Under the pieces are notes generated by a model. It made no database searches, was not told the DNA's origin, and was given only the letters and a program-made list of their open reading frames with translations. From the IMG/VR virus record IMGVR_UViG_2609459840_000012, positions 1 to 30,027 of that record: a stretch of DNA of 30,027 nt. One strand, 5' to 3'. The stretch comes from a virus (Duplodnaviria; Heunggongvirae; Uroviricota; Caudoviricetes). A program made the position numbers and the translations under genes. This document shows, piece by piece, positions 10,076 to 12,013 of this stretch (position 1 is the first letter of the stretch; every line of letters begins with the position of its first letter).

Positions 10076-12013
10076 GTGAATCTTAAACGGGCCTGCTCCC
10101 TGCTGACGGTGAAATCCTTCAGTGAGGATGAGCGGGTGATCACCGGGATTGCGTCAACGCCTTCTCCGGATCGGGATGGTGACATCCTGGAGCCGGAGGG
10201 GGCGGAGTTCGGCAGTGCGATCCCGTTTCTCTGGCAGCATGACCATTCCCGCCCGGTGGGGCAGTGTACGGTGCGCCGGGTCAGCGAAGGGCTGGAAATC
10301 ACGGCAACACTGGCGAAGCCTGTGCCAGATATGCCATCGCAACTGGCAGCCCGACTGGATGAGGCCTGGGCGGCCATTAAGACCGGGCTGGTCAGGGGAC
10401 TGTCCGTGGGCTTCCGTCCCCATGAATACACCTTTCTGGACGGAGGCGGACTGCATTTTCTGCGCTGGGAACTGATGGAGGTGTCTGCCGTCACCGTGCC
10501 CGCGAATGCGGAATGCACCATCCGGACCATTAAATCTTACGACCGCCAGTTTTCTGCCGCGTCCGGCAACCGGAAACCGGTGGTGAAAATCGCATCTTCT
10601 GCCGGCGCTGCGGCACAGTCAACAACCGTTTTTCATAAGGAAAAGACCATAATGAATATTGGCGAACAGATTAAAAGTTTTGAAAACAAGCGTGCAGCGC
10701 TGGCAGCCTCCCTTGAGGAGGTCATGACCAAAGCCGCAGAGGAAGGGCGCACGCTGGATGTGGAGGAGGAAGAGCATTACGACAACACCGCAGCGGAAAT
10801 CCGTCAGGTGGATGCGCACCTGAAGCGCCTGCGTGAACTGGAAGCCGGTAAGGCCGCCACGGCGCAGCCGGTGAAACAGGCCGGTAACGGGAATGTGGCC
10901 GCGGTGGCTTCAGCGCCGGTGATCCGTGTGGAGCAGAAACTGGATAAGGGGATTGGCTTCGCCCGCTTTGCCAAATCACTGGCTGCGGCTAAAGGTGTCC
11001 GCTCTGAAGCCCTGGAAGTGGCCCGTCGTCAGTATCCGGATGACAGTCGTCTGCATCATGTCCTGAAATCGGCAGTGGGCGCGGGGACCACCACGGATCC
11101 GCAGTGGGCAGGCAGCCTGTCTGAATATCAGGAATATGCGCAGGACTTTATTGATTACCTGCGTCCTCAGACCATTATCGGGCGATTTGGTCAGGGTGGG
11201 ATCCCTGCACTTCGTCAGGTGCCGTTCAATATCCGTGTGCACGCCCAGGTGTCCGGCGGTGCTGCTGGCTGGGTGGGGGAGGGGAAGGCAAAACCCCTGA
11301 CGAAGTTTGATTTTGAGTCCATCACCTTCAGTCATGCGAAGGTGTCGGCCATTGCAGTACTGACGGAAGAGCTGATCCGTTTTTCCAGTCCGGCTGCTGA
11401 TGCACTGGTCCGTAATGCGCTGGCGGAAGCGGTGGTGGCGCGTCTGGATACAGACTTTGTGGATCCGAAAAAAGCCGCAGTGGCAGATGTCTCCCCGGCG
11501 TCCATCACCCATGATGTGAAGGGCACGGCATCAACCGGTAACCCGGATGCGGATGCGGAGGCCGCGTTTGGTCAGTTTGTGGCAGCAAACCTGCAGCCCA
11601 CCGGTGCGGTCTGGCTGATGTCCAGCACCAATGCCCTGGCGTTGTCAATGCGTAAAAATGCGCTGGGTCAGAAAGAATACCCGGATATGACCCTGCTTGG
11701 GGGGGCCTTCCAGGGGCTGCCGGTGATTGTCTCCCAGTACGTGGGTGACCAGCTGGTGCTGGTGAATGCCCCGGATATTTATCTGGCGGATGACGGCGGC
11801 GTGGCGGTGGATATGTCCCGCGAGGCATCACTGGAAATGCAGTCTGAGCCGACCGGCGACAGTACCACGCCGTCGCCGGTGGAGCTGGTTTCCATGTTCC
11901 AGACAGGCAGTGTGGCCATCCGTGCGGAGCGCTGGATCAACTGGCGTCGTCGCCGTACCGCGGCGGTGGCGGTGATCACCGGTGTGAACTACGGCAGTGC
12001 GTCCGGCGGCTGA
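10076..12013 (+). CDS. Prohead protease (HK97 family) fused to major capsid protein (HK97 fold), 645 aa
   Basis: N-terminal about 190 aa has prohead-protease-like features (FLWQHDHSRPVG, GLSVGF, SAVTVPAN). From the in-frame Met at 10652 onward there is a coiled-coil delta-domain-like stretch followed by a capsid-like domain. GTG start with GGAGG Shine-Dalgarno. Confidence 0.75.
   Translation: MNLKRACSLLTVKSFSEDERVITGIASTPSPDRDGDILEPEGAEFGSAIPFLWQHDHSRPVGQCTVRRVSEGLEITATLAKPVPDMPSQLAARLDEAWAAIKTGLVRGLSVGFRPHEYTFLDGGGLHFLRWELMEVSAVTVPANAECTIRTIKSYDRQFSAASGNRKPVVKIASSAGAAAQSTTVFHKEKTIMNIGEQIKSFENKRAALAASLEEVMTKAAEEGRTLDVEEEEHYDNTAAEIRQVDAHLKRLRELEAGKAATAQPVKQAGNGNVAAVASAPVIRVEQKLDKGIGFARFAKSLAAAKGVRSEALEVARRQYPDDSRLHHVLKSAVGAGTTTDPQWAGSLSEYQEYAQDFIDYLRPQTIIGRFGQGGIPALRQVPFNIRVHAQVSGGAAGWVGEGKAKPLTKFDFESITFSHAKVSAIAVLTEELIRFSSPAADALVRNALAEAVVARLDTDFVDPKKAAVADVSPASITHDVKGTASTGNPDADAEAAFGQFVAANLQPTGAVWLMSSTNALALSMRKNALGQKEYPDMTLLGGAFQGLPVIVSQYVGDQLVLVNAPDIYLADDGGVAVDMSREASLEMQSEPTGDSTTPSPVELVSMFQTGSVAIRAERWINWRRRRTAAVAVITGVNYGSASGG

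Follow-up and report, generated by a model that had tools for sequence, protein, structure and literature searches.

Does the long reading frame between the large terminase and portal genes of this prophage encode a genuine protease-capsid fusion and, if it does, is the capsid protein made only within that fusion or also on its own? The window (the whole stretch of DNA that was analyzed, 30,027 nucleotides) presents both questions at a single locus, the features of which are listed in Table 1. We assign a probability of about 0.68 to the reading that a lambdoid prophage of the long-tailed Stx-phage (BP-4795) type has a genuine gene for head assembly at 10076..12013, and that this gene is nested, with a 69-kDa product and a second, predicted product of 48 kDa.

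Table 1. Coordinates of the features discussed, in order along the window.
Feature	Position	Strand	Remarks
Mu-like prophage ORF	3633..4565	-	
MuA-type transposase, Mu-like prophage	4637..6724	-	
Ner-like ORF, Mu-like prophage	6727..6957	-	
Repressor-like ORF, Mu-like prophage	7142..7687	+	
TerS fragment	7962..8354		
TerL	8351..10012	+	Pfam TerL_ATPase and TerL_nuclease; annotated as terminase large subunit in loci L001 and L002; directly upstream of the fusion
Terminator-like GC hairpin and T-run	10037..10062	+	Between terL and the fusion; consensus-scan match 10037-10054, T-rich tail
Full-length translation initiation region	10065..10078	+	AGGAGG 10065-10070, 5-nt spacer, GTG 10076-10078; read from the sequence
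Protease-delta-capsid ORF	10076..12013	+	645 aa, 69.0 kDa; GTG start, TGA stop 12011-12013, uninterrupted frame
Predicted prohead serine protease domain, aa 20-157	10133..10546	+	PF04586 match, hhalign to HK97 gp4, conserved residues
H55 codon	10238-10240	+	Within the protease domain
S110 codon	10403-10405	+	Within the protease domain
Variable linker, aa 158-192	10547..10651	+	Protease C-terminal tail and former intergenic spacer
Candidate internal translation initiation region	10638..10654	+	AAGGA 10638-10642, 9-nt spacer, ATG 10652-10654 (M193)
Nested in-frame delta and capsid ORF	10652..12013	+	Predicted product, 453 aa, 48.2 kDa
Helical delta/scaffold-like segment, aa 195-261	10658..10858	+	AF2 helices; weak coiled-coil Pfam match at aa 189-210
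HK97-family capsid body, aa 386-635	11231..11980	+	PF05065 (Phage_capsid)
Small ORF (orf73), 73 aa	12058..12279	+	phrog_829 (function unknown), E 1e-37; between the capsid and portal genes
Portal protein	12225..13589	+	Pfam Phage_portal, E 7.6e-80; downstream of the capsid gene

The initial annotation described one 645-aa ORF with protease and capsid parts and no stop between them, and this description is borne out both in the window and in 22 related loci of Gamma-, Beta- and Alphaproteobacteria in which the frame is open. The remaining two forward frames over the same interval contain 23 and 32 stops (frame scan), so that no single hidden frameshift or indel would yield two clean genes. PHROG 617 (profile length 626) spans aa 1-639 of the fusion (E 1e-260), and a CDS of equal length, 1938 nt, has been annotated independently in phage BP-4795 (ORF56) and in E. 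coli STEC2018-607. A sequencing error concealing a stop, which the initial annotation had named as a possible refutation, is therefore excluded by the occurrence of the same CDS in many independent records, along with the open frame and the stop-filled alternative frames. Since a single unbroken ORF, conserved across independent genomes, holds both domains, the gene belongs among the fused protease-(scaffold)-capsid genes. It is hardly credible that the fusion is an artefact or a pseudogene created by sequencing error or by recent loss of a stop codon in a decaying prophage. The host prophage is indeed damaged, its terS gene having been truncated by the insertion of a Mu-like prophage, but BP-4795 and E. 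coli records have the same open frame, the 5.2-kb head module that contains it is matched in 1258 of 5426 complete E. coli genomes and is carried by an inducible phage, and the frame is open across genera down to about 35% identity, with catalytic-type residues invariant. Homologues have (A/T)GGAGG followed by ATG at the same place as the AGGAGG and GTG of the 10076 ORF. A weak 5' start codon as a general dosing device for the fusion was considered and is unsupported: the E. coli allele has GTG, and most homologues have ATG with a strong Shine-Dalgarno (SD) sequence.

The N-terminal part is a predicted serine protease of the HK97 gp4 type, as judged from profile and residue matches. It matches Peptidase_S78 (PF04586) at aa 48-153 (E 3.7e-8, 34.1 bits, above the Pfam cut-off of 21) and phrog_80, 'head maturation protease', at aa 1-167 (E 2.6e-40); against the narrower equivalog TIGR01543 it scores 46.7 bits, under the cut-off of 59. 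The family profile aligns by hhalign with residues 24-163 of HK97 gp4 (E 1.1e-5), placing S110 on gp4 S114 and H55 one position off gp4 H65, before a shared P-V-G motif. S114 and H65 are the residues that we take to be the catalytic Ser and His of gp4, and the Ser and His of Peptidase S78 are represented in the fusion by S110 (aligned) and H55 (one position off). Among diverse relatives drawn from the best 150 of 12330 representatives at 50% identity, H55 is present in 145 of 145 and S110 in 144 of 145, and H55, S110, E135 and S137 are kept in at least 143 of about 145. Sequence searches of the PDB matched no protease structure, and a search of the literature for statements on the HK97 catalytic residues found nothing usable.

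The C-terminal part matches the HK97-family capsid model PF05065 at aa 386-635 (E 1.1e-13, 51.7 bits, above the Pfam cut-off of 24.2), and aa 204-584 correspond to profile positions 3-355 of 385 in TIGR01554, major_cap_HK97 (77.1 bits against a cut-off of 27.5), a match that takes in the N-terminal delta region. Because the latter alignment sets in at aa 204 with profile position 3, a capsid protein complete with delta region and body begins just after M193. An AF2 model built from a shallow alignment of the family (A1), with a mean pLDDT of 40 and values below 30 in the capsid part, contains helices at 195-223 and 229-261 (pLDDT about 76-80) that are consistent with a delta/scaffold-like segment. 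Sequence searches of the PDB gave weak capsid matches only, to 9d9w and 9gyi (with the A1 profile, the 9d9w major capsid protein at E 8.8e-6), and hhalign of A1 against the single HK97 gp5 sequence gave no match. All three parts discerned at the outset from the letters of the ORF have been recovered: the HK97-type (S78) prohead protease by its score above the Pfam cut-off and the gp4 alignment with S110 on S114, the coiled-coil delta/scaffold-like middle by the delta coverage of TIGR01554, the AF2 helices and the weak coiled-coil Pfam match, and the capsid-like part, delta region included, by PF05065 and TIGR01554 together.

Between the protease domain and the delta segment, the linker (aa 158-192) has the lowest conservation in alignment A1 and is the sole stretch with indels. 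Several relatives have separate protease and capsid genes. In Acidovorax (locus L025), the protease ORF stops at TAA, followed by AAAGGA and then by a GTG that opens MNLQEQIKRL; in Snodgrassella (loci L026 and L029), the protease ORF ends 23 nt upstream of an ATG that opens MTIEEQIN. Both openings are homologous to MNIGEQIKSF, the context of M193 in the window; the counterpart of the M193 codon (ATG 10652) is thus precisely where the capsid gene of split relatives begins, and five representatives with only the major capsid protein (MCP), among the best 150 of 12330, also begin at the M193 residue. The protease ORFs of L025 and L026 terminate within the region that matches the linker. Since the capsid starts of split and MCP-only relatives are homologous to M193, the linker corresponds to the protease tail plus the spacer through which translation now reads. 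At the level of sequence comparison, the fusion is shown to have arisen by read-through of a short intergenic spacer between protease and capsid genes. The protease and capsid genes of HK97 are 2 nt apart, so that there, too, the loss of a single stop codon would suffice for a fusion.

In addition to the fusion, the capsid part is probably produced separately, from a conserved internal start at the former gene boundary. The initial annotation had proposed that ATG 10652 could allow separate initiation, and this proposal gains comparative support from the split-gene starts, the AAGGA motif and an AT-rich, unstructured context. In the window, AAGGAAAAG lies at 10638-10646, upstream of the in-frame ATG 10652. 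M193 is invariant in alignment A1, in which the linker that leads up to it varies most. An AAGGA or AAGGAGG-type motif is found 5-10 nt before the homologous start codon in 22 of 22 fused loci, a count that overstates independence, the loci being phylogenetically related. The AAGGA motif occurs in differing codon phases (AAG-GAA, translated K-E, in some loci; AAA-GGA, translated K-G, in others), which indicates conservation at the nucleotide level, not the peptide level. In Reyranella (locus L022), AAGGAGG is followed by a GTG (Val if read through), as checked at the codon level. Across 142 diverse fused relatives (clusters at 50% identity or less), the boundary residue is Met in 127, Val or Leu in 12 and none of these in 3, against a background of 2.5% Met, changes of Met to Leu or Val being ordinary conservative substitutions too. 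SD-compatible dipeptides just upstream of the boundary are found in 59% of the same relatives versus a background of 12%.

The composition of the site is also distinctive. The 50 nt at 10652 have a GC content of 0.30 versus a gene mean of 0.60, within the lowest 1% of such segments, and 20 of 22 loci likewise have the start region in the lowest 1%; among 60-nt segments of the whole ORF, the eight with the least structure are centered at 10643-10670. The duplex energy of the internal SD is moderate (-5.3 to -6.2 kcal/mol), ranking in the top 10-17% of in-frame positions, and so the internal SD is not significant in any single sequence. What is found across the family is a conserved in-frame start with a ribosome-binding site, as in nested in-frame genes of the lambda C/Nu3 type. 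Another candidate internal start, M217 (ATG 10724, after GAGGAGG), was rejected: its spacer is only 2 nt and its mRNA structure is average (-19.3 kcal/mol, 59th percentile). A literature search on this head module found no usable proteomic or N-terminal data.

In the C/Nu3 genes of phage lambda, an in-frame start inside the protease gene leads to an excess of scaffold by itself, and the longer product brings the protease into the prohead through the part that the two products share. By analogy, initiation at GTG 10076 would give a 69-kDa protease-delta-capsid protein and initiation at AAGGA 10638/ATG 10652 a 48-kDa delta-capsid protein; the two would co-assemble through the shared capsid part, the protease entering the prohead as an N-terminal extension of some subunits and then cleaving off itself and the delta segments, and the ratio of the two starts may set the protease dose, as in nested C/Nu3. 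The lambda products have the scaffold in common, the capsid protein E being encoded by a separate gene, whereas those of the window would share delta plus capsid; two products have been demonstrated for C/Nu3 and are predicted for the fusion. We lean towards the more general proposition that the fusion is an obligate two-output gene in more than 100 clusters (50% identity), producing delta-capsid in bulk and a protease-tagged subunit as a minor form, with the start ratio setting encapsidation and dose; a search of the literature found no description of two-start dosing for protease-capsid fusions. If the internal start is functional, the C/Nu3 principle extends to the capsid protein itself, and both the route and the amount of protease entering the prohead become directly testable by simple point mutations.

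In the main alternative, the 69-kDa product would be the only one, a polyprotein that gives each capsid subunit a protease and a delta segment, to be trimmed once assembly has taken place; the internal Met and SD-like motif would then be relics of the gene boundary or kept for protein-level reasons. Rough arithmetic suggests that a T=7 prohead could accommodate as many protease domains as it has subunits, so that assembly from the fusion only is physically conceivable, and the protease-capsid genes of small actinobacteriophages are described simply as fusions in the relevant passages of two reports (PMC5513430, PMC7302621). The internal SD is modest in strength and the motif could be inherited from the spacer, as the split relatives show; the AT-rich patch could be a spacer relic along with the SD-like motif if fusions were recurrent and recent. 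Nevertheless, 139 of 142 clusters at <=50% identity have retained a codon compatible with initiation despite varying length and sequence of the linker, the AAGGA motif is preserved in different codon phases, and in 20 of 22 loci the site falls in the least structured, most AT-rich part of the ORF. A relic without selection should have decayed at this divergence, which counts against a gene with the fusion as its sole product, and we regard such a gene as unlikely, if still worth serious consideration.

Release of free protease by programmed frameshifting or by early termination in the linker would accord with stops that the -1 and +1 frames reach shortly upstream of the internal ATG (10636 and 10650), and with the A-runs in the linkers of several homologues, but no canonical X XXY YYZ heptamer is present in the window or in 9 other fused loci, and among the loci that have one its position is not conserved. 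Such release is very improbable, and a programmed -1 frameshift freeing the protease is rejected for lack of a conserved slippery heptamer. Two nested products from one frame, sharing the delta and capsid parts, remain the preferred reading.

Comparison with characterized head genes places the fusion among several known arrangements. HK97 has homologous protease and capsid-family parts in gp4 and gp5, but as separate genes preceded by the portal gene, whereas in the window they are fused and precede it. Gifsy-2 is said to have a 'tripartite capsid gene' with a central scaffold-like segment, its protease is reportedly ClpP-like, and a decoration protein of the lambda gpD type is said to be present on its capsid; a ClpP-like protease would differ from the S78 (HK97 gp4-type) protease of the window. 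The protease and coat genes of Gifsy-2 are fused according to the passage of a published report that mentions them (PMC12315714). Actinobacteriophages possess 'capsid and protease fusion' genes (Arthrobacter clusters AM, AU and AN, Microbacterium cluster EE, and Rhodococcus phage RRH1) which, like the gene in the window, combine capsid maturation protease, sometimes scaffold, and major capsid subunit in one gene, as summarized in passages of PMC5513430 and PMC7302621, and those passages report no internal start; unlike the gene in the window, they belong to phages of unrelated hosts and have little or no sequence similarity to it. The closest counterparts are BP-4795, other long-tailed Stx phages (1717, 2851, Lys8385Vzw and Stx1a/Stx2c phages) and E. 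coli prophages, which have the same 1938-nt CDS. The BP-4795-type head module is 95.5% identical to that of the window in DNA sequence over 5.2 kb and has likewise the order TerS, TerL, fusion, small ORF, portal; nothing essential differs, except that the prophage in the window has a Mu-like prophage in terS.

The fusion is widespread. Its TerL-to-portal block of 5.2 kb matched 93 phage records at 90-99% identity, and the cluster of the fusion protein at 98% identity has 9916 members; the head module is matched in about a quarter of complete E. coli genomes, Stx-converting phages included. Homologues of about 75% identity are found in Salmonella, Enterobacter, Klebsiella, Serratia, Pantoea and others, and the fusion persists down to about 40% identity in other Proteobacteria. 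An exhaustive search of 50%-identity representatives identified 12330 relatives, of which the best 150 were examined, and 132 of these 150 are of fusion size, the most distant at about 38% identity. Phage Lys8385Vzw, which has the 5.2-kb module at 95.4% identity, has been obtained by induction and assigned to the siphoviruses (PMC7946995), which indicates that the head module builds virions.

Protease-capsid fusion is already known and annotated in public phage records and families. ORF56 of BP-4795 is labelled 'putative major head protein/prohead protease' (the RefSeq label is 'phage major capsid protein'), and the names of PHROGs besides 617, and of an NCBIfam model, state explicitly that these are protease/capsid fusions. 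The NCBIfam model, NF045541 'prohead protease/major capsid protein fusion protein', matches only aa 48-287 of the fusion in the window with 53.2 bits against a cut-off of 525; it has the same architecture and is a different lineage. The family-wide conservation of the internal start site may be the only new element. The gene is a textbook-style example of phages compressing head assembly functions, and the label 'major capsid protein' given by gene callers hides by itself both the protease and a probable second product.

Two kinds of aberrant relative were encountered. In an Arsenophonus endosymbiont (locus L021, 5465-6928), the counterpart of the fusion has fallen apart into short open frames, which is consistent with decay of a prophage in an insect endosymbiont. 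Three relatives (P0001, P0123 and P0133) of about 1080-1094 aa have an extra N-terminal part of about 440 aa before the protease-capsid fusion, which in P0001 is a TerL ATPase domain; such proteins could represent yet larger fusions, assemblies with frameshifts or artefacts of gene calling.

The order of genes in the window (TerS fragment, TerL, fusion, orf73, portal) differs from that of HK97 (terS, terL, portal, protease, capsid); the initial annotation had called the order of TerL, protease-capsid and portal non-canonical, and comparison of related loci adds that it is conserved across the lineage. TerL, fusion, small ORF, portal, repeat protein and gp6-like connector follow one another in 28 GTDB loci, wherever the contig allows; Beta- and Alphaproteobacteria have this order as well, as do relatives whose protease and capsid genes are separate. 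Since it is common to fused and split relatives, the position of the capsid gene before the portal gene is a trait of the lineage that is independent of the fusion. The small ORF, found in most related loci, lies in a different frame from the portal gene and shares 55 nt with its start.

The terminator-like hairpin at 10037-10062 directly precedes the ribosome-binding site of the fusion. A gcgggtttttt motif occupies the same position between terL and the fusion in Enterobacterales homologues, and HK97 likewise has a putative terminator just before its protease gene. The hairpin could be a site of transcription attenuation, RNA stabilization or processing.

The left 7.9 kb of the window (1-7933, junction 7933|7934) is the end of a Mu-like transposable prophage that interrupts terS of the lambdoid prophage at codon 48. 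Of the 162 positions in the TerS profile, the fragment that is left aligns only with 65-162, and with terS truncated in this way the fusion-bearing lambdoid prophage would probably be unable to package DNA on its own. An AAA ATPase annotated in this region by matching records is probably the ORF at 3633..4565.

Downstream of the portal gene, and overlapping its stop (ATGA), is an ORF of 407 aa (13586-14809) with 3.3 copies of a 162-bp (54-aa) tandem repeat at 13811-14343, 97% identical to each other. Relatives differ in the length of this gene (1386 nt in BP-4795), perhaps because they differ in the number of repeat copies. In PGAP annotation the portal gene and the repeat ORF are joined as a single portal gene marked 'frameshifted', and the repeat ORF is matched by positions 455-859 of PHROG 2271 (859 aa, 'portal protein'). 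The repeat ORF, which has a weak CBM_5_12 match near its C-terminus, might encode a head fibre or decoration protein.
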